From an uncultured Thermoplasmata archaeon (GTDB lineage Archaea; Thermoplasmatota; Thermoplasmata; RBG-16-68-12), in contig CAVYJM010000006.1 in NCBI GenBank assembly GCA_963768855.1, positions 704,001 to 768,000 of the forward strand: a DNA stretch of 64,000 nucleotides. Direction: 5' to 3'. The notes under the pieces were generated by a model. It had not been told where the DNA came from, made no database searches, and saw only the letters and a program-made list of their open reading frames with translations. Numbering within the stretch: position 1 is the stretch's first letter; the number at the start of each line of letters is the position of its first letter. The translations under genes and the position numbers were made by a program. Positions 18,298 through 35,125 of the stretch are shown in pieces.

Positions 18298-18357
18298 GCG
18301 TTACCCGGGTTGGCGCGACGTAATGCCCACCGGAGAGGGTTCTATACAGGTGACTCG

Positions 18358-19365
18358 ATGGTCCTTGTGATCCGTCGCAATTTGCGTAGGGACGAGCGCG
18401 GTGTTGCGTCGACCGTCGGGACGATCATGGCGCTCCTCGTCTTCCTGACGTTCCTCAGCCTGATTGTGAACCAGTACGTCCCGGTATGGATGAAGGACTC
18501 GGAAGCTACCCACATGGACACGGCGGTCGCCCAGTTCGCCGACGTCAAGGGGGCCATCGACTTCTCCGTCCTCGGCGCCCTGATGGCCCAGAACGCGGGC
18601 CCCGGCGCGATTTTCGTGCCGCCTACAGCGTCCACTTCGGTCACGTTAGGCGTCGATGGGGTGCCGATCTTCTCGAGTCCGACCACGGGCGTGCTGAACG
18701 CGAACCCGGACGGAGGGCCCTGGAACCTGAGCTTCGAGTACTGCATCAGGGTCAACGACGTCTGCACGAACACCCATGTCGACCAGAACGCGAGCGGACA
18801 ACTGGACCTCGTGATCCAGAACCGCTACTACCTGACCGGGGACATCGTCTACGAGAATGGGGCGGTCATCCGCTCCCAGTCGGACGGTCAGGTCGTGCGC
18901 GCCTCTCCGATCTTCCAGATCACGCCGAGCGCCACGAACCTTTCCGTCGCGTTCGAGCTCGTCAACCTCTATGGAGCCGGGAGCGCCGCCGGGACCACCA
19001 CCCAGATCGTCGACACGAAGGTCATTGGCGTGAACCAGCAGGTTTACGCAGGCCTGACGAAGAACCTCACGATCCGCCACACCTCGGCGTACGGCCTCGC
19101 CTGGTTCAACTTCTTCAACTCGACGCTCTCCTCCGGACTAAGGGTCACCCAGTACGTCTACTCCTCCCGCTTCGGGACCACCCAGGTGATCGGGACATTG
19201 CCGGGGACCACCAGCGCCATCTACACGATCGCGATGAATTTCGTGCCGGCGACGGGTTTGTACTCGCTGACGTTGAACATCTCACCCACGCCGCTCAGCC
19301 TCGCTTTCACTCTCCAGCAAGCGTTCGTGAACGTCGGAGTGGGACAGACTTCCAACGGGGTGTGA
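18358..19365 (+). CDS. Archaeal type IV pilin-like protein (class III signal peptide)
   Basis: RRNLRRDERG|VASTVGTIMALLVFLTFLSLIV; YVPVWMKDSEATHM; GDIVYENGAVIRSQSDG. Confidence 0.85.
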   Translation: MVLVIRRNLRRDERGVASTVGTIMALLVFLTFLSLIVNQYVPVWMKDSEATHMDTAVAQFADVKGAIDFSVLGALMAQNAGPGAIFVPPTASTSVTLGVDGVPIFSSPTTGVLNANPDGGPWNLSFEYCIRVNDVCTNTHVDQNASGQLDLVIQNRYYLTGDIVYENGAVIRSQSDGQVVRASPIFQITPSATNLSVAFELVNLYGAGSAAGTTTQIVDTKVIGVNQQVYAGLTKNLTIRHTSAYGLAWFNFFNSTLSSGLRVTQYVYSSRFGTTQVIGTLPGTTSAIYTIAMNFVPATGLYSLTLNISPTPLSLAFTLQQAFVNVGVGQTSNGV

Positions 19366-19371
19366 GGTGCG

Positions 19372-21024
19372 ATGCCGAAGCAGAAGAAAATCATGATGCC
19401 CAAGGGGTCGATGGCGCAGAAGGCCGAGTGGTCCGGGTCCCGCGGCTCCTACCTGACGCACATCCCTGATCTCGACCGGGACACGCTCGAGGAGATCGAG
19501 GTCATCCCGATCCGGGAGCCGTTCACGTACTCCCGCGTCGTCTACGACCACGACCGGTCCGAATACATCTACGAGGTCTGGGAGCCGCAGCTCGACGATC
19601 GGGAGAAGGAGCTCCTCGACATGCTCAAGGACTCCCTCCAGCGCACCCTCGAATATGAGTGGGACAAGATGGCCGAGAAGGACAAAAAGGAGTACCTCGA
19701 GGAGGCCGTCGAGTCGTTCATCCACTCCCGCGGCCTGCGTCTCGAGCCCGCGTCCCGCGACAAGATCGTCTACTACATCATCCGGGACTTCGTGGGCTAT
19801 GGGCCCGTGGACGTGCTCATGTCCGACGGCCGGATCGAAGACGTCTCCTGCGATGGGACGAACATCCCGCTGTTCATTTTCCACCAGAAGTACGAATCGA
19901 TCAAGACGAGCGTGATCTTCGAAGACGAGGACGTGCTCAACTCCTTCGCGGTCATGCTCGGACAGCGCTGCGGCAAGCAGATTTCCGTGGCGATGCCCAT
20001 CCTCGACGGAACGAGCGTCGAGGGCCACCGCGTCCAGGCGACGTACAGCAAGGAGGTCACGACCCGCGGCTCGTCCTTCACGATCCGGCGCTACAAGGAG
20101 AAGCCCTTCACGCCGGTCGAGCTTGTGAAGTTCGGGACCGCCAGCACCGAGATGGTGGCGTACCTGTGGATCGCCGTCGAGAACGGCAAGTCCATGATGG
20201 TCTGCGGCGGGACCGCGTCCGGGAAGACGGCCACCCTGAACAGCGCCGCGCTGTTCATCCGTCCCGGGGCGAAGATTGTCTCGATCGAGGACACCCGCGA
20301 GATCAACCTGCCCCACCAGAACTGGATCCCGGGAACGACCCGCACAGGGGTCGGGGAGCGCGGCGCGGACGGCAAGGCCGGAGGCGAGATCGACATGTAC
20401 GATCTCGTGCGCGCAGCGCTGCGCCAGCGTCCGAACTACATCCTGGTCGGTGAGGTCCGTGGCAAGGAGACGTACACGATGTTCCAAGCCATGGCCACCG
20501 GGCACCCGACGATGTCCACGATGCACGCGGACTCCGTCAAGTCGATGGTCAACCGGCTGGAGAACCCGCCGATCAACACGCCGAGGATCCTGCTCACCGC
20601 CCTGAACTTCGTGATCATCCAGACCCACGCCCGCATCGGCGACTCGATCGTGCGCCGCATCAAGCAGATTGTGGAGCTGGTCGGGTTCGAGCCTGAGACG
20701 AACGAGTTGATCACGAACACGGTCTACGAGTGGGACCCCGCCACGGACACCTTCGTGTACAAGGGGCACTCCTTCCTCTTCGACGAGATCATGGAAATGA
20801 AGAACATGACCCATGAGGAGATGGAGGCGGAGTTCCAGCGCCGCATCGACATCATCAACTACATGGTCGAGAAGTCGATAACGGACTTCCGCGACATCGC
20901 GAAGCTCGTCGTGTCCTACTACCAGTATCCGGAGGAGACCGCGAAGCGGATCCGGGACGAGATGGGCTGGACCGAGCAACGTGCTGAGAAGCCCCTCGAG
21001 GCGGGAGGTGAGGCCGTTGGGTAA
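19372..21024 (+). CDS. Type II/IV secretion ATPase (FlaI/TadA-like)
   Basis: IEDVSCDG, GGTASGKTATLN, SIEDTREI, LRQRPNYILVGEVRG, TGHPTMSTMHA. Confidence 0.95.
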   Translation: MPKQKKIMMPKGSMAQKAEWSGSRGSYLTHIPDLDRDTLEEIEVIPIREPFTYSRVVYDHDRSEYIYEVWEPQLDDREKELLDMLKDSLQRTLEYEWDKMAEKDKKEYLEEAVESFIHSRGLRLEPASRDKIVYYIIRDFVGYGPVDVLMSDGRIEDVSCDGTNIPLFIFHQKYESIKTSVIFEDEDVLNSFAVMLGQRCGKQISVAMPILDGTSVEGHRVQATYSKEVTTRGSSFTIRRYKEKPFTPVELVKFGTASTEMVAYLWIAVENGKSMMVCGGTASGKTATLNSAALFIRPGAKIVSIEDTREINLPHQNWIPGTTRTGVGERGADGKAGGEIDMYDLVRAALRQRPNYILVGEVRGKETYTMFQAMATGHPTMSTMHADSVKSMVNRLENPPINTPRILLTALNFVIIQTHARIGDSIVRRIKQIVELVGFEPETNELITNTVYEWDPATDTFVYKGHSFLFDEIMEMKNMTHEEMEAEFQRRIDIINYMVEKSITDFRDIAKLVVSYYQYPEETAKRIRDEMGWTEQRAEKPLEAGGEAVG

Positions 21025-22057
21025 CTCGGCCTTCGCGAAGCTCGAGACCCGCGGCACCCTGACCAAGACGAAGCGCACCCGCCCCGGCCAGGAAGAGCCC
21101 GTGGAGGGCGCGCACCTGGTGAAGCTCCCGAAGGGGGCCAAGCCGGTCAACGTCAGCCTGTCCCCGCGGGAGCAGCTCGCCTGGCGCACATTCGGCAAGT
21201 TCGTTCAGGCCCGAGAGCGCGAGAACCAGGAACTGGAGGACAACCTGCTGAAGGCCCACATCCGGCTGCGCCCCGAGGAATACCTCGCGGTGGCCTGGAT
21301 GAACACGACCATCGCGGCGGTCGCCGCGGTTGTGACGGCCTTCGCGGCGATCGTCCTGCTCTCGTTCCTCCACGTGGACATCGTGACGCTCCTCATCATC
21401 TTCGCCCTCGTCGCGGCCGTTCCGATCTTCCTCTCGTACATGTATTCCTTCGGCCTGCCCATCGGCTACAAGGGCAAGCCCGCGGCCCTCTCGAAGAAGC
21501 GCGGCCGCAAGATCGACAAGAAGATCTCCGGCGCGATGTCCTTCGTCTCGGCGATGGCGTCCGCGGACGTCCCGGTCGACGTCATCTTCAAGGAGCTCTC
21601 CAAGCAGCAGGTCTACGGCGAGGTCGCCCGCGAGGCGGAGTGGATCACCCGGGACACGGAGTTGCTCGGCCTGGACATCCTGACGGCCATCCGCCACGCG
21701 GCGCAGCGCTCCCCCTCCCCGAAGTTCCAGGACTTCCTCCAGGGCGTCGTCACGACGTCCACGAGCGGTGGCCAGCTGAAGCCCTACTTCCTCATGAAGG
21801 CGGAGCAGTTCGAGAAGGAAGACCGCCTCGAGATGCGGAAGAAGATGGAGACGCTCGGGATGCTCGCCGAGTCGTTCGTCACGGTCGTCGTGGCGTTCCC
21901 CCTGTTCCTGGTCGTCATCATGGCCATCATGGCGCTGATCAGCAAGGGCGGGACCGGGTTCATCCTGGAGCTGCTTTACGTGGTCGTCGCCCTGATGATC
22001 CCCATCAGCCAGTTCGGATTCATCTTCGTGATTTGGAACATGGAGCAGGAGGGATAA
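21017..22057 (+). CDS. Type II secretion system F / TadB-FlaJ-like platform membrane protein
   Basis: TTG start after GGAGGTG; MASADVPVDVIF, LLGLDILTAI, FQDFLQGVVTTSTSGG; several TM segments. Confidence 0.88.
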   Translation: MGNSAFAKLETRGTLTKTKRTRPGQEEPVEGAHLVKLPKGAKPVNVSLSPREQLAWRTFGKFVQARERENQELEDNLLKAHIRLRPEEYLAVAWMNTTIAAVAAVVTAFAAIVLLSFLHVDIVTLLIIFALVAAVPIFLSYMYSFGLPIGYKGKPAALSKKRGRKIDKKISGAMSFVSAMASADVPVDVIFKELSKQQVYGEVAREAEWITRDTELLGLDILTAIRHAAQRSPSPKFQDFLQGVVTTSTSGGQLKPYFLMKAEQFEKEDRLEMRKKMETLGMLAESFVTVVVAFPLFLVVIMAIMALISKGGTGFILELLYVVVALMIPISQFGFIFVIWNMEQEG

Positions 22058-22058
22058 G

Positions 22059-22988
22059 ATGGCCCGACCCGACCTCGAGCAGGCACGCATCCGGCTCTAC
22101 GAGAAGGCAGACCGCTCGAAGTTCGTCCTGGGCATCAGCATCGCCCTCTTGGTGATCTTCGGCTTCATTGCCGCCCTCAACCTGATTGGATCCGTGGAGA
22201 TCGGCTTCCGCGCGAACGCGCAGCCCACGGACAACTTCCTGAACTGGCTCGTCATCGCCATCATGGGCTTCGTCGGCCCCTACGGCTTCTACATGGCCCG
22301 CAAGCAGCGGGAGGTCAAGCAAATCGAGCGCCGGCTCCCCGACTTCCTCCGCGACGTCGCGGAGGCGGGCCGGTTCGGCATGACCCTCGCCGAGGCCATC
22401 GTCGTGTCGAGCGGAGGGCGCTACGGCCGGCTGACCCCCGAGATCAAGAAGATGGCGGCCCAGATCAGCTGGGGCGTCCCGGCCACGGAAGCCCTGCGCC
22501 TCTTCGCGGAGCGCGTCAAGACACCCGCCGTGCAGCGGGTCGTCGCGATCATCGTGAAGTCCTCCGACGCCGGAGGCGACGTCGCGGACGTGCTGACGAT
22601 GGTCTCCCATGACACGAAGGAGAACCAGCTCACGGAGGACGAGCGGAGGATCACGATGTCGACGTACATCGCGGTCATCTACATCTCGTTCCTGGTGTTC
22701 CTGGTGACGATCTTCATCCTGGACGCGACCTTCCTGCCGAAGATGGTGGAAGCGAGCGGAGCCCTCGGTGCGGGCGCGGGCGGCGCCCTCGCGGGCAACA
22801 GCCCCCTCGCCGCGAACCTGCCGGAGGTCGTCCAGCAGATCAAGATCGCGTTCTTCATCGCGCTGATCGTGCACGGCCTGGGCGACGGGATCCTGGCGGG
22901 CGTCCTCGACAACGGGAAGATCCCCACGGGCCTGCGCCACAGCTTCATCATGCTCCTGATTGCCCTGCTCGGAGTCCAGATCATCTGA
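22059..22988 (+). CDS. TadC-like platform membrane protein
   Basis: IERRLPDFLRDVAE..RFGMTLAEAI, YGRLTPEI, ISWGVP, DAGGDVADVL. Confidence 0.9.
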   Translation: MARPDLEQARIRLYEKADRSKFVLGISIALLVIFGFIAALNLIGSVEIGFRANAQPTDNFLNWLVIAIMGFVGPYGFYMARKQREVKQIERRLPDFLRDVAEAGRFGMTLAEAIVVSSGGRYGRLTPEIKKMAAQISWGVPATEALRLFAERVKTPAVQRVVAIIVKSSDAGGDVADVLTMVSHDTKENQLTEDERRITMSTYIAVIYISFLVFLVTIFILDATFLPKMVEASGALGAGAGGALAGNSPLAANLPEVVQQIKIAFFIALIVHGLGDGILAGVLDNGKIPTGLRHSFIMLLIALLGVQII

Positions 22989-22997
22989 GGTGAAAGC

Positions 22998-24813
22998 ATG
23001 TCCCAGTCCACGGAATCGGATTACTCGGAGACCCTCGAGGACCTCGACCAGAAGAAGGCCAAGGTGGCCGCGCGCGTTCAGCGGCTGGAGGCCGAGAAGG
23101 TCGAGGCCCAGAAGATGCTCGCCCAGATCGAGGAGAAGCGCAAGAGGACCCTGTTCGCGGCCCTCGACTCGATCAAGAAGCGGTACTTCGGACGCCTCCT
23201 CGGCGACAAGGGCATCAAGGTCAAGGCGCCCCGCGTCAGCGGCGTCGAGGAGGCGACCCTCGGCAAGATCACGACGATCCCGAAGATCGTCGAGCGCAAC
23301 ATGAACGAGATCGAGATCCAGCCGATCCTGAAGAACTACTCGTACGTGCGGATTCTGTACGATACCCTCGCCAACGAGTATTTCTACGAGGTGATCGAGC
23401 CGAAGCTCATCGAGGAAGAGTCGGAGCTCCTGGATGTCCTGAAGGAGATCATCGTCGCCAATCTCGAGCTCATGGAGGACGCGGACAAGGCCCAGAAGGA
23501 GACCTACCTCCGCCGCGTCGTCGACGGCCTGCTCCGCGAACTCGGCGTCGAGCTTCACCCGGTCTCCAAGGAGCGGATTATCTACTACATCATCCGGGAC
23601 TTCATGCGATACGGCGCGATTGATGTCGTGATGACGGATGCCCAGGTCGAAGATGTCTCCTGCGACGGTGTCTTGGTGCCCTTCTACATCTACCACCGCA
23701 AGTACGGCTCCATCCCGGCGAACCTGAAGTTCGACAACGCGGAGGAACTCGACTCCTTCGTCATCTGGCTCGCCCAGCGCTGCGGCAAGCACATCTCCGT
23801 GGCGCAGCCCATGCTCGACGCGACGATCCCGGACGGCTCGCGTCTCCAGGCGACCCTCGGCATGCACGTCACCAAGCGTGGGTCCTCCTTCACGATCCGG
23901 CGGTTCCGCGAGAACCCCTTCACGCCGCTCGACATGATCCGGTTCAAGACCTTGTCGCCCGAGATGGCCTCGTACCTCTGGCTGGCAATCGAGAACGGAC
24001 AGTCGCATGCTGATCTGCGGCGGCACGGCGTCGGGCAAGACGACCACCCTCAACGCGATCCTGCTGTTCATCCCACCCCAGATGAAGATCGTGTCCATCG
24101 AGGACACGCGCGAGCTGAACCTGCCCCACGAGAACTGGGTCCCCCTGCTCACCCGCGGAGGTTTCGGCGGGAAGAGTGTTTCCACCGGCAAGGCGGCTGG
24201 CGAGATCGACATGTTCGATCTGCTGACCGCGGCTCTCCGCCAGCGCCCGCAGTACATGATGGTCGGTGAGGTCCGAGGTTCCGAGGCGTTCGTCGTGTTC
24301 CAGGCCATGGCCACCGGCAAGTCGGCGTACACGACGTTCCACGCGGATGACGTCCAGGCGATGGTCCACCGCCTCGAGAACGACCCGATCAACCTGCCGC
24401 GCGCCCTGGTCGCCGCACTGGACATCGTGCTCCTCCAGGCTCAGGTCAAGGTCGGCACGGACATGACGCGACGCGTCAAGTCGATCGTCGAAATCGTGGG
24501 GACGGATCCCGAATCGAACGAGCTGATCACGAACTCCGCATACACGTGGAACCCGGCGGATGACACGTTCAACTACTCCGGCCACAGCTACGTCTACGAG
24601 AAGATCTCGCTGGCCCGCAACTGGAACCAGCGACGCATGGAGCAGGAAGTGAAGCGCCGCCTGGACCTGTTCGAGTACATGAAGCGGACGGGCGTGCAGA
24701 ATTACCGCGAGGTCGCGAAGATCGTGTCCTCGTACTACAAGGACCCCGAGGGCATGATCAAGATCGTCCGCGACACCCTGGCGACCCAGGGCGTCCAGAC
24801 CGTCGCGGCCTGA
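22998..24813 (+). pseudogene. Second type II/IV secretion ATPase with N-terminal coiled coil; +1 frameshift at ~24006 (pseudogene or assembly error)
   Basis: VEDVSCDG and FTIRRF in the first frame; GGTASGKTT, IEDTRE, LRQRP..GEVRG in the second frame. One extra C in CAG TCG C ATG explains the break. Confidence 0.88.
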
Positions 24814-25039
24814 CCGCCCTACCGAGCCCCCTGACGACAGTCGCCCGACGCGGAGCGCGGTCCTCCCGCGATCTCCATGCGGTTGAGCGCCAACGCATAC
24901 GTAGCCCGGACGGCAGGGTCTTGCGGTCCTGGAAGAGCCCGGGAAGGACTTCGCCGTGCGGATGGACGTTCCGCTGGACCCCGGGACCGCATTCGAAACG
25001 TTCCTCGAGGATCTCCTTCCGGTCTCGCCTGTCTGGGGC

Positions 25040-25380
25040 TGAGCCTCGATCCGGTCCCGGACGGGCGCATCCCGCAGGCCGGACGGGAGGTGGGACGGGT
25101 CCTCACGTGGGAACCCGGGAAGCCGCCCGCCTCGAGCCGGACGCGCGAGCTCGCCGGCACGCCGGCCGCGCCCGAGCCCATGGCGTCCCGCATCCGCTTC
25201 TATGAGGACGACGAGCTCCGGCGACTCGCGCTGCAAGCGGATTTCGTGGAGGCTCATGCCGAGCGTCCGGAGCACGAAGGATTCGCCCGCGAGGCGGGAC
25301 TCTCGGAGGCCGAGGTGGCGTTTTTCCAAGCCACGGGCGGGGCGCAGCTGCTCACGGCCCGCAAGCCGCGACCGAGTCCT
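25040..25380 (+). pseudogene. Probable relic of a class I SAM methyltransferase C-terminus
   Basis: VGRVL..PG..RELAGTPAAPEPMASRIRFYEDDEL..LA..ADF..GGAQLLTARK resembles, from recall, the C-terminal strands of a methyltransferase family; no SAM-binding GxG N-terminus or good start. Confidence 0.4.
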
Positions 25381-25630
25381 CGCCTCCGGGTCGGATCGGC
25401 GGGGTCACAGGTGCATGACGAGCGGGGCGACGGAGGGCATCAGGAAGACGAGCGTCACGACGAACCGGGCGAGGAGGCGGCCCCTGGGCAGGACGGCGGG
25501 CAACGTCGCCGCATAGAAGGGTGAAGCCAAGGTCGTTCCGGAATCGTTCGGGGGAAGACGAACGGAGCGCCGGCGCTTCCGCTCGCCCACGAAAAATGAA
25601 GAAGGGAAAGGAAAGGGGAGGAAGGCGAGC

Positions 25631-28600
25631 TCAGAGCTCGTCTCCCTGGTTGTTCTGTCCGCCGGACTGCTGGTCCGTCTCTTCCTGCGTGCCGGCCTGC
25701 TCGCCCTCGGTCGCGGGGCGCTTGATGACCCGCTTCTGGACCACGGGGGCGGGGGTCACCGGCCTCCGGATCACCGGGCGCGCGGCTGGCGGGCTCCCGC
25801 AGCCTGCGGGCCTCCCAGCGGCTGCTGGTCGCTCGGGGGTGGGGCTTGGGCGGCGACGGCTCGCTGCCTCACGGCGGGGGCCATCCCGCCCGATCCGGTT
25901 CCGCCGGACGGCGGGCGTCGGTCCTCCTTCATGAGGGAGCCGCACTTGTGGCAGACGGTGGCCGTCACGGAGTTGAGGGTGCCGCAGACCGGGCACGGTT
26001 TCGAGCCCATCTTGCGCATCTCCTCCTCTTCGCGCAGCCAGTCCTCGAAGGTCAGGAAGGTCGGCTGCTTGCGCCACCACTCCTGGAACTCCTTGTCGGA
26101 GAGGGCCCGGCCGAGCTGCCGCGACGCGTCCTCCTTGAACTTCTGTACGACCTCGTCGTACTGGAGGCGCATCTTCTCCTGGTAGTCCGCCATCTCGACC
26201 TCGCCCGTCGCGAACTCGACGCCGCACTCCGGGCACTGTTTCACGTCGACGGGGATCCAGGCTTGGCAGTTCGAGCACTTCGCCATGTCCTTCTCGAACT
26301 CGACGCCGCACTTCGGGCAGACCGTCGCGTCCTCGGGGATGAAGGCGCCGCACTCACCGCACTCGACCATCTTGCCGAGGCCGTAGACCTTGAAGTAGAC
26401 CGTCACACCGATGACGATCGCGGCCACGGCGGCAATGATGATCAGGAAGAGCCACCAGGGGATGCCCAGGAGCGGGACGAGCTGGTTTAGGAAGGGCACG
26501 TTCCGCTTCACGACGATCGACGGCGATGCGGAGGCAATCGTTCCCTGCGAGGAGGACACGCGGAGGGTGTACGTCCCGTCCGGGAGGTCCGCCAGGGTCA
26601 CGAGGGCCGTGAACAGGCCGTTCGAGTCGGTCGTCTGGTTGATCGTCTGCAGGACCGTGCCGTCGCTCCGAACAACTGCGATCGTCACGTTCAGGCTCGC
26701 GATCCCGTTCTGAGCCGGAGTCGTGTCACGGACCACGCCCGCAACGGCGATCGCGTCTGTCGGTCCGAAGGTTGTTCCCGCAATCGGGGTGTAGAGGACG
26801 ATCGTACCTTGGGGCGGTGCCACGTTCATGGCCACGTTCACGATGTTGTTCGTATAGCCGGTCCCACCCTCGACGAGCGTGTGGTCCGGGTTCACGATGA
26901 TCGTGAGCGTCTGGCCTCCCGGCACCGGGATCCCGGACACCTGCACGGTCACGTTCGTCAGGGTCGTGACTGCGATGCCGTCTGTGCGCCCGTAGGTCAC
27001 CGAGGTGTTCCCGTTCAGGAAGACGGCCACGGAGGTGTTCTGGACAGCGGTCTGGCCGAGGTTGTGGACCTTCACCACGATCTTGAATCCCTTATTCTGG
27101 CTCACGTTCAGCGGGGTGAAGTCCGCGGACAGCAAGGCCAGATCGGGCTGGGACAGGACCTTCTGCTGGACGCGGAGCGCGTTGTTCGTGACGTTGTAGT
27201 CACGATTGCGGATCGAGGTGTTCGCCGTCATCACGTAGATCGTGATGTTGTGGAATCCGACGAGGGTCGGCAGCCACTGGACCTCGACGTTCGCGAGCTG
27301 ACCCGCACTCACGCTGAAGGTCGTGGAGGTCGCGACCGAGTTCCCGTCCTCCAGGATCGTGAGCGTCGCGCTTGTTGCGGCTCCCGTGCCGAGGTTGTGG
27401 ACCGTCACGTCCACGGGGACGCTGTTGTTCACGACCGGGTCCACGGGGAAGCGCACATCCGCGGCGTCCACGAGCGCAAGATCCGGCCAAGTGATCAGGG
27501 CGAATGCGTGAGTCGCGATGTTGTTACTCAGGTCCGTCTCCGGGATCGCGCTGGCGCCGAGGGGGTCGCCCAGGGGCGGGTTGACGACCACGGAGATCGT
27601 CACGCCCGTCTCGAAGCTGCCCGAGACGGTGAAGTCCGCCGTCGCGGTCGCGTCCCCGTTTGCGGGGACCGAGGCGATCGTCACGTTGTCGATCAACGCG
27701 TTCGCGTTTTCGTATGCGCTGACCGGGGCGTCCATGATGTTGTCATGGTTCGCGTCCACGTTGACCGAGAAGAAGTTCACGACCACCGAGGTCACGGGGT
27801 TCTGTCCCGCGTCGTGGATCGTCGCGGTGATGGTCACCGGCTGGTTCAACGGCTCGAAGTCCGGGAGCGAGCTCCCGCCCGTGATCGTGACGCTGGCGAC
27901 AGTCAGGTCCGGCGTAAGGCCGGGGACGGGGAGCGCCACAACCACAGGGTTGTTGTTGTCCTGGGCCGTGATGCTCGGATAAGGAGCGAAGGTCGCCGAG
28001 GCGTTCCCGACATAGGACCCGCTGTAGGTGCCCGTCGCTTGGTAGTTCCCGAAGGAGTACGCGTTTGGCAGGCTGGCGGAGGTGACCGTGTCGGTCCACA
28101 GCGGAATCACGGCCCGCCCCTTCGAGTCGGAGGTGTTCCAGTTGGAGGCCGTCCGGCCGATGTACCAGAGGGTGCGGGATCCCGGGACCAGGGCGTTCCC
28201 GTTGTCCGGGTACTGGGCGGTCTGCGAGCCGACGTGAGACCAGATCGTCGCGCTGACGAGTGGAGTCCCGTAGGGGTCCGTCACCTTCGCGTTCATCCAG
28301 CGCAGAATGTTGACCGCGCCGTTGCCCGAGGGGACGAACGCCGCGAGCTGGAGGTACTGGGGCGTCGCATCGCTCTGGGCCTGGTCGACCGTGACGTTGT
28401 AGAAGTACGTGCGCGAGGTCGTGTCGACGTTCATGACATTGTGGACCTGCCAGTTGTTGGAGAAGTCAACGCCGATGTACGTGTCGTACGCATAGATGAA
28501 GGAGCCCCCGTTGACGGTCACGTTCTTCGCAACGAGCCCGCCGCCCTGGGTGTTCTCGTAAATCTGCTCGATCCGGGAGTGGTACAGGTAGGCGGTCGCA

Positions 28601-29178
28601 GACGCCATCGTGATGAGCGCCGAGTCGTCGTCGTCATCGATCCACGAGGACGTTCCGAGGCCGTTCAGGTCGGAGTCCGAGAATCCAGTGATCTTCGAGG
28701 CGGTCATGTTGAGGACGGAGCCGGAGTTCAGGTTGAGCGCCCCGGGGAACCTCAGGACGGATCCGGTCTGCATCGCAAGGGTCCCGTTCACCGTCGCGGT
28801 CAACTTGACGTACGGGTTGAGCGTGTTCGTCGAGGTGGTCAGGGTCGAGTTCACCAGGACGAGGGATCCGCCCGCGTCGATGAACATTGCGTGGACGTGC
28901 GATAGGTCCTGGACGAAGCTGATGCCACCGTCCACGAGGGTGAGGCTGCCCGCGCCGCGGATGTAGAGGCTTCCATCCAGGTAGAAGAACATCCCCGAGC
29001 AGGTCTGAGGCGAAGTGACGATCCAATTGCCCGACAGCAGGGTGCTGGACTGGCCGCAGTTGTCGGCGCTCACCACAGGCGTCGTCACGAACAAGACGCC
29101 TGTGAGGCCGCCGATGGCCATCAGCGAGACGATCATAAGGCTCAGCGCCCTGGCATTCCGGTTGGCTTGGTCAAACAT
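25631..29178 (-). CDS. Large single-pass surface protein: signal peptide, beta-helix-like region, CARDB repeats, TM helix, cytoplasmic zinc ribbons; probable 1-nt frameshift near 25792
   Basis: ATG 29178 with GGAGG; PDLTV/PDLAL CARDB starts with V.V.N.G and ETDLSNN; TM WWLFLIIIAAVAAIVIGVTVYF; CxxC pairs (CGECG, CPKCG, CSNCQ, CPECG, CPVCG, CHKCG). The natural-looking tail PVIRRPVTPAPVVQKRVIKRP lies in another frame ending at 25631. Confidence 0.85.
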
Positions 29179-29262
29179 CGCAGGACCTCCCGGGGAGGAG
29201 TCGCAGGGCGGTTTCCCTAGCACCTCTTCCGGTGGGCATGTGGGCGGCCCATCCTGGCCCTC

Positions 29263-29439: not shown

Positions 29440-30576
29440 TCAGATGACCTTCTTCTTGAGGACCTTCTTGACCGTCGAGATCTGAGCCTTCTTCCCGCCC
29501 TTGTCGTCCTCCGCGGACATCCGGTGGCCGCACGCGTAGCACATGATCGCATCGCTGGAGATCATCGTGCCGCACGAGGGACAGGGCAGTTCGCTCTCCC
29601 CGGCGGCTTCCTCGACGACTTCCTCTTCCTGGAGGCGGTGGCCGCACGCGTAGCACATGATCGCATCGCTGGAGATCATCGTGCCGCAGGCAGGGCAGGG
29701 CACCTCCGCGGCGGCCTCTTCCTTGACCTCGGGTTGGGCCTGGACGACCGGCTTCCCGACCGGCTTGGCCATCTGGGGTACCGGCTGGGCTGCGGTGGCG
29801 GGCTGGGGTCGGGCCGCCGGCGGGGCGGTCGCGGGGCCCGGTCCGGAGCTCCGGACGGCCGGAGCGGGCGCGGCCGCGGGAGCCTGCGCCGAGACGGGGA
29901 TCTGCGCGGCCTGCGCCTGCTGTGCGCGGAGGCTCTGCTCCAAGGCGAGGAGCTGCTTCTCCTTGTCGGCAAGCCGGCGCGTCTCGTCCGCGATGCGGGT
30001 CCGGCTTTGGGCGAGGTTCTGCTCCTCGTCGGCAAAGCCCTTCTCGCGTTCGAGTTGCTGTCGACCCTTGGCGATCTGGTCCTCGAGCGCGGCCTTGTGG
30101 TCCTCCATGACCTTCACGAGTTCCTCCTGACGCTTCACGATCTCACTCTTGCGAGAGGCGATCTCGTTCGCATGGGCAGCCGTTTCCTCGTGCCGCTTGG
30201 CGATCTCGTCCTCGCGCTTCACGAGGGATTCAAGGCGCTTCGCGAGTTCCTCCTCACGCTGGACGAGGCCTTGCTCCTTGGAAAGCACCTTCTGCTTGGT
30301 GGATTCGAATTCCTGTTCTCTCTGCTCCAACGACCTCTCCTGCTGCTCGAGCTCCTTCTCGCGGGCGCGGAGTCCCTTCTCACGACCCGAGAGGGCGTCC
30401 TTCTCGTCGGCGAGGCCCGCCTTCTCCTGGTCCAGCGTCTGCCGCTCCTCGGCGAGTTTGGTCTCCCGCTCCTGGAGAGCTCCCTCGCGGTCCTTGAATT
30501 CCGCGTCGCGAGTCTTGATGCTCTCCTCGAGCTTCTTCAGTGCATCCAGTGCGTCCAAGATCGATCCATCGGCCAT
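29440..30576 (-). CDS. Coiled-coil protein with Pro/Ala linker and two C-terminal zinc ribbons
   Basis: Long E/K/R heptad region; two PCP.CGTMISSDAIMCYACGHR units; tail VKKVLKKKVI. Confidence 0.85.
   Translation of the reverse strand: MADGSILDALDALKKLEESIKTRDAEFKDREGALQERETKLAEERQTLDQEKAGLADEKDALSGREKGLRAREKELEQQERSLEQREQEFESTKQKVLSKEQGLVQREEELAKRLESLVKREDEIAKRHEETAAHANEIASRKSEIVKRQEELVKVMEDHKAALEDQIAKGRQQLEREKGFADEEQNLAQSRTRIADETRRLADKEKQLLALEQSLRAQQAQAAQIPVSAQAPAAAPAPAVRSSGPGPATAPPAARPQPATAAQPVPQMAKPVGKPVVQAQPEVKEEAAAEVPCPACGTMISSDAIMCYACGHRLQEEEVVEEAAGESELPCPSCGTMISSDAIMCYACGHRMSAEDDKGGKKAQISTVKKVLKKKVI
29522..29688. repeat. 53-bp identical direct repeat (29522-29574 and 29636-29688)
   Basis: Both copies read CGGTGGCCGCACGCGTAGCACATGATCGCATCGCTGGAGATCATCGTGCCGCA; they encode the two zinc ribbons. 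Confidence 0.92.
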
Positions 30577-30644: not shown

Positions 30645-31367
30645 TCATGAGGTGTTGCCTCCCGTGTCGAAGATGGGGCCCAGCACGGTGAGCCCGCCTT
30701 TTCGCGGCTCGATCGCATGTTTCTCCATGGAGTGCTCGACGGCGCGCATCTTCTCCACCTGGAGGTAGCGCACGAGCTTGCCGTGGGCGCGGTCGAGACC
30801 GAGCATCACGATGCCATCGACGAGGAAGCCCTCGTTGCCAAGCATGTGGCTCTCCCCGCCGAGGCTCCGTTCCATGACGATGAGCGAGATCAGATTGTTG
30901 TCCCGCAGCATCTTGAAGAAGTAGAACATGCGCTTCCGCATGTTGCCGTTGTTCTCCATCAAGGAGTACAGAGCCCCGAGGGAATCGAGCGCGAACACGC
31001 GGAACTTCGGACCGTGGAGTTTCTTGAAGTGGGTGATCATCTTCTCGATGAACGCGATGTAGTCGGTCTGGTCCTCCGGACCGACCACCGCGTCGATCTC
31101 GCGCAAGTCCGTGAAGTCGCTGATTTGCATGTTGAGGGAGATGTCGATCCCGAGGGACTCCATGTTCCGGAGATGGGACTGGACCGTCTCCTCGAGGGTC
31201 GTGTACAGCCCGAACTCTCCCGTCTCCTTGAGGTACTTCGACATGAGGGCGTAGCAGAACGACGTCTTCATCGCGCCCGGCGGGCCCGTGACGAGGATCA
31301 CCTTGGGCGGCGTGATCTCGGTGCGGATGACCTTGTCGAGACCGTCGATGGACGCGCGGAAACCCAT
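30645..31367 (-). CDS. KaiC/RAD55-family (RecA-fold) ATPase, single domain
   Basis: SIDGLDKVI, VTGPPGAMKTSF, YTTLEE, ALDSLGAL, EGFLVDGIVML, LQVEKMRAVEH. Confidence 0.88.
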   Translation of the reverse strand: MGFRASIDGLDKVIRTEITPPKVILVTGPPGAMKTSFCYALMSKYLKETGEFGLYTTLEETVQSHLRNMESLGIDISLNMQISDFTDLREIDAVVGPEDQTDYIAFIEKMITHFKKLHGPKFRVFALDSLGALYSLMENNGNMRKRMFYFFKMLRDNNLISLIVMERSLGGESHMLGNEGFLVDGIVMLGLDRAHGKLVRYLQVEKMRAVEHSMEKHAIEPRKGGLTVLGPIFDTGGNTS

Positions 31368-31561: not shown

Positions 31562-33001
31562 GTGTGCGATGCGACGATCGACGCGGATGCGGAGAGCTGC
31601 CCATCTTGCCTCACGGACCTGACCCTTTTCGACATCGGTGGTGACTCGTCTGAGGAGAGCTCGGATGTGCGCATGCCCGAGGGAAAGAGCATCGACGACA
31701 TCCTCGCATCGATCATGGAAGGGAAGGCCGAGCAACCCGAGATCTTCGAGACCCTGAAGAACGTCGCGAAGGATCATCGGAGCACGAAGGACCTTCTGGT
31801 CGAGGAGAGGTCCGTGGAGCTTTCGCCCCCCTCGCCGACTCAGGAGGAGTCGCCGTTCCTGTGTCCGGTCTGTGACACCCCCGTCCGATCGGACGACACG
31901 GTCTGCCCCGGTTGCGGGGCTGAGTTCTCCGAGGGCCAGGCCACCGAGTATGAGTGCCCCGTGTGCAAGGCCGCGGTGCCCGCCGATGCGGACCACTGCC
32001 CGGGGTGCGGCGTCCGCTTTGCCTCCGAGGAGGAGGCTGGACTGGCTGCCGCGGAGCCTTCCCCCCCGCAGGAACGTCCTCCTCCTGCATCCGTGTCTCC
32101 AGCCGCGCCCGCCGCGTCGGCCTCCCCAGCGGCTCCCAGGCCGCCTGACACCGTGAGGCTGGGGCTGGGCCCCAAGGTGGAAGGCCTCCGTGACGAGGTC
32201 CGCAGCGAGCGTCGGGACATCCCGTACGGAGATCGCAAGCTCATCGCGCGAGAGTTGCCGCGGCTCGTCAACGAGGTCAAGCCTCTTCTGGTCAGCGCGA
32301 AGCGGATCGGAGTCGGCATCGATGGCGGGAAGCGGCTCATCAACAGCGCCGTCGAGGCCGGGAAGCGCAAGGAGATGGAGAAGGCGGTCCGCCTGATCTC
32401 GGATGCCCGCCACTCCCTCGATGTCGCGTTCGTCGACTTCGTCGGCAGCCGCCTGGTCGCGCTCGCCTCGGAGGTGGAGGCGGCCGGCCCCGGCGACGCC
32501 GCGAATCTCGCTCGCCCCCAGCTCGAAGACGCTTTCGCCCGACTGAAGGATCGCGAGTACGACGCCGCATGGGACGCCCTCCAGGCCGCGAAGACTACGT
32601 TCCAGTCCCAGGCCCGTGAGTACACGGAGGGACGCAAGATCCTGGAAGCGACCGAGCGGCTGCTCGGCGAGGTGCGGAGCCTCGGGATGGATTCGAAGGA
32701 GGTCGAACGCCTGGTGCGGCAAAGCCGCGAGGCCGGCGAACGCCGCGATCTGCCCGGGTCCCTGCGACTCGCACGCCAGGCCCAGGAGCGCCTGCTCCAG
32801 GCGGTGCCCGAGTTCGTGCAGGTCGAGATGCGCAATGCACGGGACCGCCTCTTGGACGTGAAGGTGCGGGGCGGAGATCTGTCCAAACCCGTCGGGATCC
32901 TCAAGGAGGCCAGCGCGCACGTGAAGAACGAGGAGTGGAGCGAGGCCATCCGGTTCCTGAAGGAGTTCGAGAAGGAGATCTCCCGTCTGCCGAAAGCCTG
33001 A
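31562..33001 (+). CDS. Multi-zinc-ribbon protein with helical C-terminal region; start probably a few codons upstream
   Basis: CPVC/CPSC, CPVCD/CPGCG, CPVCK/CPGCG pairs, Pro/Ala linker, helical repeats; in-frame KETKVC precedes the GTG. Confidence 0.82.
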   Translation: MCDATIDADAESCPSCLTDLTLFDIGGDSSEESSDVRMPEGKSIDDILASIMEGKAEQPEIFETLKNVAKDHRSTKDLLVEERSVELSPPSPTQEESPFLCPVCDTPVRSDDTVCPGCGAEFSEGQATEYECPVCKAAVPADADHCPGCGVRFASEEEAGLAAAEPSPPQERPPPASVSPAAPAASASPAAPRPPDTVRLGLGPKVEGLRDEVRSERRDIPYGDRKLIARELPRLVNEVKPLLVSAKRIGVGIDGGKRLINSAVEAGKRKEMEKAVRLISDARHSLDVAFVDFVGSRLVALASEVEAAGPGDAANLARPQLEDAFARLKDREYDAAWDALQAAKTTFQSQAREYTEGRKILEATERLLGEVRSLGMDSKEVERLVRQSREAGERRDLPGSLRLARQAQERLLQAVPEFVQVEMRNARDRLLDVKVRGGDLSKPVGILKEASAHVKNEEWSEAIRFLKEFEKEISRLPKA

Positions 33002-33013
33002 CCGACCTGGCGG

Positions 33014-35125
33014 TCAACCGGCGCGGACGACTTCCATCTCCCGCTCGAGCATCCGGAGTTCCTGCTCCTTCACCGTCGCGGGTCCCAAGGAGATCAGGAA
33101 GATGTGGTGGCCCTCGGAGACCGTGTCGACGAGTCTCCGGACGAACTTGAGGACCGCGTCGAAGGAGTTGTTCGAAACGAGGTACTCGACGCCGTCCAGC
33201 ATGATCGAGCCCTGCGGCCGCTTCGACATGAAGCCTTCGATCTCGTAGACGATTCGCTCGAGCGCGGGGGCGATTGTCTCCTCCTTGCTCCCCTCGCGGT
33301 CCGTGAGCCAGAGGACGCGGACGGCATCGAGCGAGAAGGATTCCCGGACCCGTTTGGGGTTCGTTCGGGTGATGAGCAAGCCGCCCTTGGCTCCGTCGAC
33401 CGCCTTCGCGAAGAGCCGGTACGCCTGCTCCGGACGGTCCTCCTCGACTAGGTAGCTCCGTCCCGCCCGCAGGTCCTTCGGAACGCCGGACGGGGGAGCG
33501 GTCCTCGTCTCCTTCGTCGGCTCCACGACTTCCTGCCGCAGAACTTCCTTCGCGAGGTCCGCGGTGATCGGGCGCTCCATGAGCGACGAGAAGGCCACAA
33601 CGCGGTTCAGCGCGCCACCGAGCTCGCGAACGTTGTCCTCGACGAGGTTTGCGATGTACCGGAGGACGTCGGTGTCGACCGTCAGATGCGCGTCCTCCGC
33701 GCGCTGTCGCAGGATCTGAATTCGGGTGTCGAGTTCGGGTGCCTGGATGTTGGCGAGGAGGCCGGATTCGAACCGGGAGACGAGGCGGTCGTCGAGCTGC
33801 GTGATGGCCTTGGGAGGCCGGTCACAGGCGAAGACCAATTGTTTCCCGCCGTTCGAGAGCTCATCGAATATCCGCAGGACTTCCTCTTGGAGGTCGCCCT
33901 TCCCGCTGAGGAACTGCAGGTCGTCGAGAAGGAGGCAGTCAAGCGATCGGACGCGTTCGTGGAAGCCCCCCGATCCGCGGACGCCCCGCGACGCCTCGAG
34001 ATGGCCGGCGAGCGCCTCGCACGTGAGATACAGGACCTGCGACCCGGGACGGTGGGCGCGCAGGTAGTTGCCGACGGCGTTGAGGAGATGGGTCTTCCCG
34101 AGCCCGGGGCCCGACGTCACGACGAGGGGGTTGTATGCGCCGCCCGGTTGCTTCCCCGCGGCGATCGCGGCGCCGTAGGCGAAGCGGTTGCTCTCCCCCA
34201 CGATGAAGGCGTCGAAGGTGTACTGCTCGATGAGCTCGGTGGCCTGGTCGCGCGTCGGCGTGGGACCCTCGAGGACCTTGGCGACCTCTTCCCTCGACGG
34301 GGTGGGGATGTCGGACCGCATCGCTCCGCGTTGACGGAGCACGAGTTCGAGCACTTTCTTCGTCCGCTCCTGCGAGTCACGCTCCCTGGTGACCTCGATG
34401 CGGCGCCGCTCCTCGATTCGCTTGTAGCTCTCCACCGCATCCCGGAGGCTCTCGACCTCCGAGTCGATGTCCGGGTTGCGGAGTGGATCCCTCAGCTTCT
34501 GATGGAGGGCGGCCGCCCGCGCCTCGAATCCCCTGGTGTCGAGCCCTTTCAGCGTATCCTCGACGGCCTCCGCGCGGCGGATCGCCTCGAGCAGGGACAG
34601 ATAGGCTCCGGTGACCACGCCAGGATTCCCGTTGATCTGGTCCTGAACGGAGTTCACGACGAAGCCCCGCGTCCTCCACTCCGCGAGCTTGGCCTCAATC
34701 TCGGCCCGGTCGATTACCTGGGGCACTTTCGGCTTCTTGATCACCTTCGCCGGCCGCTCGAGGATCGCGTCCGCGTACTCCGCAATCAGGCCGTCCATGT
34801 CGATGCGAGCGTGGAGCTCGATGGTCGCCTCATCGACGTAGGAGTCTTGCCACACCCGCTTGAGTGCAGCTCGGCCTCGCTCCTGATCCTCCCCGCGCTG
34901 GTGGAGGCTCGCCTCGGGGCTTCCGGCGCGGAGCAGGACGATCCCCTCCGAGCGCACTCCGTCGCGCGTCAGGACGATTCGCACGTAGCCCGAGAAGGAG
35001 TACTTCTTGAGGTCGAGCAGGAGCTGTTTGAGGGCGCTGGCTCCGCCTCGCGTGGTGCGGATGAGTTTTCCTTCTGGGAGAAGAAGGTCCTGCGGCGTAG
35101 GACTTCCTCGAGACTCCCGAGCCAT
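33014..35125 (-). CDS. Fusion protein: DUF2226/PATAN-like N-terminus + helical linker + DnaA-type AAA+ domain + DUF835
   Basis: YTFDAFIVGESNRFAY, YNPL..GPGLGKTHLL, LLLDDLQFL, DRPP, DRLVSRFESGL, NVRELGGALNR are DnaA domain III motifs; C-terminal SYLVEE..LITRTNP..VLWLT..MLDGVEYLVSNNSF is DUF835. Confidence 0.88.
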   Translation of the reverse strand: MARESRGSPTPQDLLLPEGKLIRTTRGGASALKQLLLDLKKYSFSGYVRIVLTRDGVRSEGIVLLRAGSPEASLHQRGEDQERGRAALKRVWQDSYVDEATIELHARIDMDGLIAEYADAILERPAKVIKKPKVPQVIDRAEIEAKLAEWRTRGFVVNSVQDQINGNPGVVTGAYLSLLEAIRRAEAVEDTLKGLDTRGFEARAAALHQKLRDPLRNPDIDSEVESLRDAVESYKRIEERRRIEVTRERDSQERTKKVLELVLRQRGAMRSDIPTPSREEVAKVLEGPTPTRDQATELIEQYTFDAFIVGESNRFAYGAAIAAGKQPGGAYNPLVVTSGPGLGKTHLLNAVGNYLRAHRPGSQVLYLTCEALAGHLEASRGVRGSGGFHERVRSLDCLLLDDLQFLSGKGDLQEEVLRIFDELSNGGKQLVFACDRPPKAITQLDDRLVSRFESGLLANIQAPELDTRIQILRQRAEDAHLTVDTDVLRYIANLVEDNVRELGGALNRVVAFSSLMERPITADLAKEVLRQEVVEPTKETRTAPPSGVPKDLRAGRSYLVEEDRPEQAYRLFAKAVDGAKGGLLITRTNPKRVRESFSLDAVRVLWLTDREGSKEETIAPALERIVYEIEGFMSKRPQGSIMLDGVEYLVSNNSFDAVLKFVRRLVDTVSEGHHIFLISLGPATVKEQELRMLEREMEVVRAG

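Follow-up and report, generated by a model that had tools for sequence, protein, structure and literature searches.

DnaA is the hallmark replication initiator of bacteria, and the textbook view is that archaea lack it. Here we describe P0001, a gene of an uncultured wetland Thermoplasmata archaeon whose predicted product is a true DnaA domain III set between a DUF2226/PATAN-type domain and an inactive KaiC domain (DUF835), with DnaA domains I, II and IV lost. The gene lies on the minus strand of a 64,000-nucleotide stretch of DNA (hereafter the window; GenBank assembly GCA_963768855.1, contig CAVYJM010000006.1, positions 704,001 to 768,000), for which a first-pass annotation from the letters alone had proposed such a fusion. 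The four-part architecture (N-domain, helical linker, DnaA core, DUF835) is conserved and all of its parts are under purifying selection; the catalytic residues are nearly invariant, and the contacts to single-stranded DNA (ssDNA) are relaxed.

Bacterial DnaA, with solved structures from Bacillus subtilis (8BTG/8BV3), Thermotoga maritima (2Z4R) and Aquifex aeolicus (2HCB/3R8F), is the closest described system. It shares with P0001 the AAA+ core, the initiator-specific two-helix insert and the lid, and its Walker A and B motifs, sensors I and II, box VII arginines and AID-2 leucine are kept in P0001. P0001 differs in having no domains I, II and IV, in the loss of the H-motif and the relaxation of the basic site, in the two domains that flank the module, in a score below the cut-off of the DnaA family model TIGR00362, and in having no dnaN or oriC context in an archaeal host with three Orc1/Cdc6 genes. 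Hda (HdaA) is likewise a DnaA-derived AAA+ module without DNA-binding domains, and works by protein contacts; it is about 230 amino acids (aa) long, compared with 703 aa for P0001, and carries a clamp-binding motif, whereas the window's genome has no beta clamp. For the C-terminal part, Makarova, Galperin and Koonin reportedly described archaeal hubs in 2017 in which a KaiC-like ATPase is joined by partner domains that are inactive KaiCs (DUF835, MEDS). The locus resembles these hubs in its C-terminal DUF835 as an output or docking domain and in a conserved single-domain KaiC-like ATPase nearby; the fusions described for them are REC-DUF835 and sensor-DUF835. Galperin et al. (2018, PMC5847659) list DUF835, as an inactive KaiC, among the output domains of response regulators in archaea.

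No published description of a DnaA-core/DUF835 architecture was found in the literature searched, in agreement with the first-pass annotation, which knew of none; databases label the proteins automatically. Likewise, no paper was found that brings DnaA together with DUF835, with KaiC-like ATPases or with Thermoplasmata in a way that corresponds to this fusion, and no searchable paper mentioning a DnaA-type AAA+/DUF835 fusion or an Orc1/Cdc6-DUF835 operon. Two "DnaA-like" leads were set aside, as they concern viral or SSV ATPases and cyanobacteria.

The ORF (open reading frame) of P0001 is uninterrupted over 703 codons, with the following parts:

33014..35125, minus strand: P0001, whole gene, 703 aa; DUF2226/PATAN-like N-domain, helical linker, DnaA domain III and DUF835
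34742..35092, minus strand: N-terminal domain, residues 12-128, DUF2226/PATAN (DUF4388)-like, from an AlphaFold2 (AF2) model, an ESM-Atlas shape search, Pfam on relatives and feature-search leads
34241..34720, minus strand: helical linker, residues 136-295, with a conserved W-x2-GY-x-V-x2-LE module and AF2 helices at 140-290
33521..34240, minus strand: DnaA domain III AAA+ module and lid, residues 296-535; Walker A K344/T345, Walker B D401/D402, sensor I D435, box VII R447/R451, sensor II R500
33026..33469, minus strand: DUF835 (inactive KaiC/RecA-like) domain, residues 553-700; Pfam, 99 bits

The six motifs named in the first-pass annotation are all present in the translation, i.e. YTFDAFIVGESN (residues 302-313), GPGLGKTH (339-346), LLLDDLQF (398-405), DRPP (435-438), RLVSRF (447-452) and NVREL (498-502), and residues 300-530 map to window positions 33538-34228, matching the 33540-34230 assigned there to the DnaA domain. 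Pfam placed Bac_DnaA (PF00308) at residues 300-457 (E 1.4e-48, 165.6 bits), followed by a weak Hda_lid match at 467-529. The NCBIfam DnaA model TIGR00362 scored 278.7 bits, below its equivalog cut-off of 343.9, over profile positions 66-343 of 437; the match thus stops where domain IV begins. Bac_DnaA_C (PF08299), the helix-turn-helix of domain IV that reads DnaA boxes, gave no Pfam match in P0001. Residues 1-300 had no Pfam match at all with E values up to 10 admitted, and hence none to domain I (DnaA_N), which in DnaA serves helicase loading and self-interaction. Where domain IV should be stands DUF835 (PF05763), as proposed earlier, at residues 563-697 (E 2.5e-28; 99 bits, gathering cut-off 33.1; profile positions 3-136 of 136).

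The module was compared with other AAA+ clades by sequence and by fold. The Hda model TIGR03420 (NCBIfam) scored 91.4 bits against a cut-off of 194.8, and the IstB models of Pfam and NCBIfam scored 21-33 bits, under their cut-offs. Escherichia coli K-12 DnaA aligned with P0001 by BLASTP at 43% identity over 230 residues (E. coli 135-364) with zero gaps (E 1e-57). In the PDB search the closest solved relatives were B. subtilis DnaA 8BTG/8BV3 (E 1.4e-66), followed by the DnaAs of T. maritima and A. aeolicus, with Hda chains reaching only E 1e-5 to 1e-7. The AAA+ part of the AF2 model superposes on 8bv3_A with a template-modelling (TM) score TMt of 0.96, a root-mean-square deviation (rmsd) of 1.3 A and 48% identity; for Hda the TMt is 0.70 at 21% identity. 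On these comparisons the module is a DnaA domain III in the strict sense, with the initiator-specific helical insert present, and does not belong to another AAA+ clade; grouping with such a clade was an outcome that the first-pass annotation had named as counting against its proposal. An IstB-like mobile-element or defence ATPase was rejected: the IstB scores fall short, a PADLOC run found no defence family, and throughout the class the gene occurs as a single copy in conserved synteny.

The N-domain was modelled separately with AF2 (mean predicted local distance difference test score, pLDDT, 84; predicted TM score, pTM, 0.75) and runs strand, helix, four strands, helix, strand, helix. In the ESM-Atlas shape search it matched DUF2226 at TM 0.76, PatA_N/DUF4388 at 0.72-0.76 and Roadblock/LC7-containing proteins at 0.69; against the DUF2226/PatA_N clusters 103-114 residues aligned at rmsd 1.8-2.7 A. 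Among 28 family members, Pfam found DUF2226 (PF09987) in four (best E 4.7e-5) and DUF4388 (PF14332) in two (6.8e-4), though none in P0001 itself; shape and Pfam matches together bear out the DUF2226/PATAN-like assignment made in the first pass. A Foldseek search of solved structures with the N-domain returned nothing below E 0.03. The same shape (TM 0.84-0.85, ESM-Atlas) opens two other types of Thermoplasmatota protein, a 368-aa protein of N-domain plus DUF835 and a long coiled-coil type.

The linker module (residues about 139-250, window 34376-34711) occurs in 5-9 tandem copies in metagenomic proteins of 850-1580 aa. Some of these tandem-module proteins begin with an N-domain like that of P0001, and the window's genome holds one tandem-module paralogue of 764 aa on contig 8 (C8:7437-9731). 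In most other families a CxxC-x(10-12)-CxxC zinc ribbon stands just before the DnaA domain (alignment columns about 408-432); the window's clade has lost this ribbon, which is missing from the aligned sequences of the window's order and from a few others.

The DUF835 domain is modelled by AF2 as alternating strands and helices and carries no P-loop: residues 553-703 contain no GxxxxGK[ST], and the two candidate places read SYLVEEDRP and ITRTNPKR. Invariant residues are Y558, E562, R587, P590, W606-T608, E623, S651, F655, R663, D667 and E671.

Homologues of P0001 were detected by six-frame search in 200 of 301 genomes of the class, often at full length and with 32-48% identity, and the gene spans about 25 families. 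Most families have a homologue in every sampled genome (e.g. 16/16 in f1, 39/39 in f10 and 41/41 in f21); it is rare or absent in three well-sampled families of mostly complete genomes (f12, 1/35; f17, 4/37; f24, 0/33). A large protein search gave 1,285 significant matches; among the matches listed, 120 of 120 carry PF00308 plus PF05763, and these are 612-787 aa long, share 56-87% identity and are named "DnaA/Hda family protein [Thermoplasmata archaeon]".

Near-identical DNA is present in public wetland and freshwater-sediment metagenomes from several studies. One independent contig (X3) runs from the N-domain through the AAA+ module (33478-35087; residues about 13-549), and another (X4) holds the linker, the AAA+ module, DUF835 and the stop (32972-34466; residue 220 to stop). 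Both domain junctions are thus bridged by independent assemblies, and the fusion is not a chimera. Nei-Gojobori ratios of nonsynonymous to synonymous substitution (dN/dS) against the two closest same-genus orthologs were low in each part: 0.05-0.08 (N-domain), 0.09-0.11 (linker), 0.11-0.15 (AAA+ module) and 0.07-0.10 (DUF835). No RNA dataset was found among the public runs that match the locus.

Functional positions of the DnaA core were compared between 43 archaeal family members and 74 bacterial DnaAs, mapped through E. coli (Eco) and B. subtilis (Bsu) numbering:

Walker A K and T: archaeal 43/43 each; bacterial 74/74 each
Walker B aspartates: archaeal 43/43 and 40/43; bacterial 74/74 each
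Sensor I D: archaeal 42/43; bacterial 74/74
Arginine finger (Eco R285): archaeal R 40/43; bacterial R 74/74
Eco R281 equivalent: archaeal R 38/43; bacterial R 74/74
Sensor II R: archaeal 42/43; bacterial 74/74
AID-2 leucine: archaeal 42/43; bacterial 71/74
H-motif (Eco V211/Bsu I190), ssDNA contact: archaeal E12, A8, I7, D3 and others; bacterial I or V 73/74
Basic site, B-motif region (Bsu K222/Eco K243): archaeal K17, R6, M7, S6, Q4; bacterial K 67/74

A hydrophobic H-motif residue is essential to ssDNA binding in DnaA; in P0001 the position is E377. The alignment indicates that the ATP switch and the subunit interface are constrained and that the ssDNA-contact surface is not. The first-pass annotation had also listed against itself a chimeric assembly and a one-off occurrence with no selection on the catalytic motifs. 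What was found instead are junctions spanned by independent contigs, homologues in two-thirds of the class genomes, and catalytic residues 93-100% kept in the 43 members, with dN/dS of 0.05-0.15.

The DnaA core of P0001 shares 40-50% identity with bacterial DnaAs of many phyla, compared with 37-48% with other archaeal families. In a quick IQ-TREE tree of 119 sequences, with a bacterial sample biased to sequences resembling the query, the 74 bacterial DnaAs lie on one side of a single branch (Shimodaira-Hasegawa-like approximate likelihood ratio test, 97), and none of the sampled bacterial phyla encloses the archaeal sequences. E. coli Hda and DnaC did not serve to root the tree, as their branches of about 10 substitutions per site were placed inside the archaeal rows; this placement is unreliable, and therefore no donor can be named. 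The horizontal acquisition proposed in the first pass remains plausible, and a single old acquisition would be the simplest reading of the sequences; the tree, with bacteria and archaea on opposite sides of one branch, names neither donor nor direction.

The window's genome (93.6% complete) has three Orc1/Cdc6 genes, all on contigs other than the window's. No domain IV (PF08299) was found anywhere in it by six-frame search, nor a beta clamp, and DnaB_C matches were marginal and on KaiC-like ORFs, by which bacterial replisome partners were ruled out. The genome holds no second real PF00308 match. PF00308 also scored above its 23-bit cut-off in the control genomes of M. jannaschii, H. volcanii and M. 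acetivorans, and the Cdc6 on contig 15 (C15) of the window's genome scored 21.4 bits; the control matches are probably cross-matches of Orc1/Cdc6-type AAA+ genes. Linkage to an origin was rejected, there being no orc1/cdc6 on the window's 1.13-Mb contig. In one complete genome (G040) the fusion gene lies 47 kb from the main orc1/cdc6, a single case.

Thirteen DUF835 domains are encoded in the window's genome, several of them C-terminal on unrelated proteins and some stand-alone. Carriers include a seven-transmembrane (7TM) sensor with two copies, a TPR/ARPP-1 protein, several unannotated proteins and, on contig 7 (C7:82785-86936), a 1383-aa fusion of isoleucyl-tRNA synthetase (IleRS), HhH, double zinc ribbon and DUF835. 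On contig 9 (C9:37712-40248), an Orc1/Cdc6 paralog (408 aa; Cdc6 lid and winged helix) has two stand-alone DUF835 genes behind it on its own strand, the first (195 aa) 17 nucleotides (nt) downstream and the second of 179 aa; a RecJ/Cdc45-like DHH/DHH-CID/DHHA1 gene adjoins this cluster. All 30 orthologous loci compared, drawn from five families of the order, have the arrangement cdc6 then DUF835, often with a 4-nt overlap, as does the one f10 genome examined. Four other families with the fusion showed no such pair within 1.4 kb, so that a universal cdc6-DUF835 operon was ruled out. The DUF835 domain of P0001 is nearest to the IleRS-fused copy (40%), with the Cdc6-adjacent copies at 29-35%, which likewise ruled out a special tie to the latter. 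DUF835 looks like a general docking module that is not initiator-specific, and whose clients include an initiator-clade ATPase.

The genes next to P0001 were compared in 20 loci from different families; those with recurrent relatives are:

31562..33001, plus strand: P0121, convergent partner gene, 479 aa; N-terminal double zinc ribbons, low-complexity linker and C-terminal helical repeats (Pfam DZR/Zn_ribbon)
30645..31367, minus strand: P0123, single-domain KaiC-like ATPase, 240 aa; Pfam KaiC, E 8.8e-33
29440..30576, minus strand: P0122, coiled-coil protein with two C-terminal zinc ribbons, 378 aa; relatives in 8/20 loci
25771..29223, minus strand: large CARDB/MG2 protein with double zinc ribbons, 1150 aa; relatives in 7/20 loci

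P0123 has the deviant P-loop GPPG[SA]MK[TS] in 12 of 12 sequences (its own and 11 orthologs), with Met at the usual Walker A glycine. An ortholog lies at most 10 kb from the fusion gene in 11 of the 20 loci, with 67-79% identity, and is far more conserved than the fusion. Across the class the gene is single-copy (E <= 1e-60) with 50-82% identity, and 88 of 151 genomes have it. No ortholog was detected in f12, f13, f16, f17, f24 and f25, families that are also without strong fusion matches; within f20 the gene is present in genome G075 and not in G013, matching the fusion. This synteny and the matching phyletic pattern support the link to the KaiC-like gene that the first-pass annotation had suggested; nothing in the analysis supports the link to PCNA, which it had also suggested.

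The stop codon of P0121 is 12 nt from that of P0001, and a P0121 ortholog is adjacent and tail-to-tail in 16 of the 20 loci, with 3' ends overlapping by 4-14 nt in six. The pair of zinc-ribbon/helical gene and DnaA-DUF835 gene is always convergent in the window (32990-33025) and in 16 related loci from many families, with stops 1-72 nt apart or overlapping by 4-14 nt; such a stable tail-to-tail pair may reflect shared termination or antisense coupling. The C-terminal domain of P0121 matched Thermoplasmatota hypothetical proteins only, plus a weak EzrA lead at 0.78.

A type IV pilus-like locus (18310-25524, plus strand) sits immediately upstream of the zinc-ribbon/KaiC cluster. It encodes a pilin-like protein (DUF7289), two T2SSE ATPases of the PilB type that carry PilB3_C, and two membrane proteins resembling T2SSF/PilC.

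We propose, with confidence slightly above even, that P0001 is a switch or scaffold whose oligomerisation depends on ATP and which docks to a KaiC-like hub, and not a replication initiator. ATP binding would drive head-to-tail self-assembly through the arginine finger, by analogy to DnaA, in a module that would no longer read or melt an origin; the loss of domain IV together with the relaxed ssDNA contacts argues against origin recognition or melting. The DUF835 tail would dock P0001 to a KaiC-like ATPase, for which the conserved and co-distributed neighbour P0123 is the candidate, and the PATAN-like N-domain and the tail-to-tail zinc-ribbon/helical partner might supply input or output contacts. 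DUF835 would then serve as a general plug, tying the DnaA core, IleRS, TPR and 7TM proteins and, in trans, the Orc1/Cdc6 paralog to the hub. Beyond the binding of ATP and an intact arginine finger, all of these steps are inferred.

Several observations weigh against this proposal. The AID-1 arginine, required by DnaA for unwinding, is kept in 34 of the 43 archaeal sequences; the zinc ribbon before the AAA+ module in most other families, the zinc-ribbon nature of the neighbouring partners and the operon link of DUF835 to an Orc1/Cdc6 paralog would each also fit a role on DNA. The packing of the domains in the full-length AF2 model (mean pLDDT 81) is of low confidence (pTM 0.45), and the matching phyletic pattern of P0123 and the fusion weighs less than its counts, since related genomes are non-independent. 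P0001 could still act on DNA as an accessory replication, repair or segregation factor that forms an ATP-bound filament on single-stranded or stretched DNA, with zinc ribbons (its own or those of its partners) replacing domain IV and DUF835 linking it to the Orc1/Cdc6 system. The conserved succession of Orc1/Cdc6 paralog and stand-alone DUF835 in the order (30/30 loci), with the RecJ/Cdc45-like gene adjoining, speaks for this, as do the zinc ribbon of most other families, the mostly kept AID-1 and AID-2 residues and the 47-kb distance to the main orc1/cdc6 in G040. We nevertheless consider it rather unlikely: most members have an acidic or small residue at the H-motif and only about half preserve the basic site, domain IV is nowhere in the genome and orc1/cdc6 nowhere on the window's contig, the fused DUF835 is nearer to the IleRS-fused copy than to the Cdc6-adjacent ones, and the cdc6-DUF835 pair was not found in four fusion-bearing families.

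A trans regulator in the manner of Hda would form no filament; it would instead dock on another ATPase of the AAA+ or RecA type (an Orc1/Cdc6 paralog or a KaiC-like protein), and its arginine finger would trigger ATP hydrolysis by that partner. The conserved arginine finger and sensor II would suit such a protein, Hda itself sets the example of a module that derives from DnaA and has no DNA-binding domains, and DUF835 is associated with both Cdc6 and KaiC-like genes; however, sequence and fold are much nearer to DnaA (279 compared with 91 bits; TMt 0.96 compared with 0.70), and the Walker A and B motifs of P0001 itself, which are not strictly needed for Hda-type action, are invariant, so that we regard this role as quite improbable. 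Least credible, and very nearly dismissed, is a scaffold without catalytic activity, the decaying remains of a dnaA that was transferred, or a mis-assembly, given the conservation of Walker A, Walker B, sensors and arginine finger at 93-100%, the low dN/dS throughout, and a gene that is intact in independent assemblies and across about 25 families.

What is new here is a DnaA-family AAA+ module in a new architecture, in a new host domain and in a probable new role, together with the quantified contrast between kept catalytic and interface residues and relaxed ssDNA contacts, the family-level co-distribution with a KaiC-like ATPase, the conserved tail-to-tail partner and the Orc1/Cdc6-DUF835 operon. 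The DUF835 gene behind the Orc1/Cdc6 paralog suggests that the network touches replication control. It is conceivable, though we hold it unlikely, that DUF835 modules physically couple initiator-clade AAA+ ATPases (the native Orc1/Cdc6 paralog via the operon, the acquired DnaA core via fusion) to the KaiC-like hub; if true, Thermoplasmata would have an unrecognised control of replication or cell-cycle licensing, built in part from a bacterial initiator module, and the same hub would tie in translation via the IleRS-DUF835 fusion. In most Thermoplasmata lineages the ATPase core of DnaA is a conserved, selected, single-copy component without its DNA-reading parts, wired to archaeal signalling-type domains. 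The family thereby offers a natural experiment on what the ATP switch of DnaA can do besides origin melting, and an entry point to the KaiC-like/DUF835 network of archaea, on which hardly any work exists.

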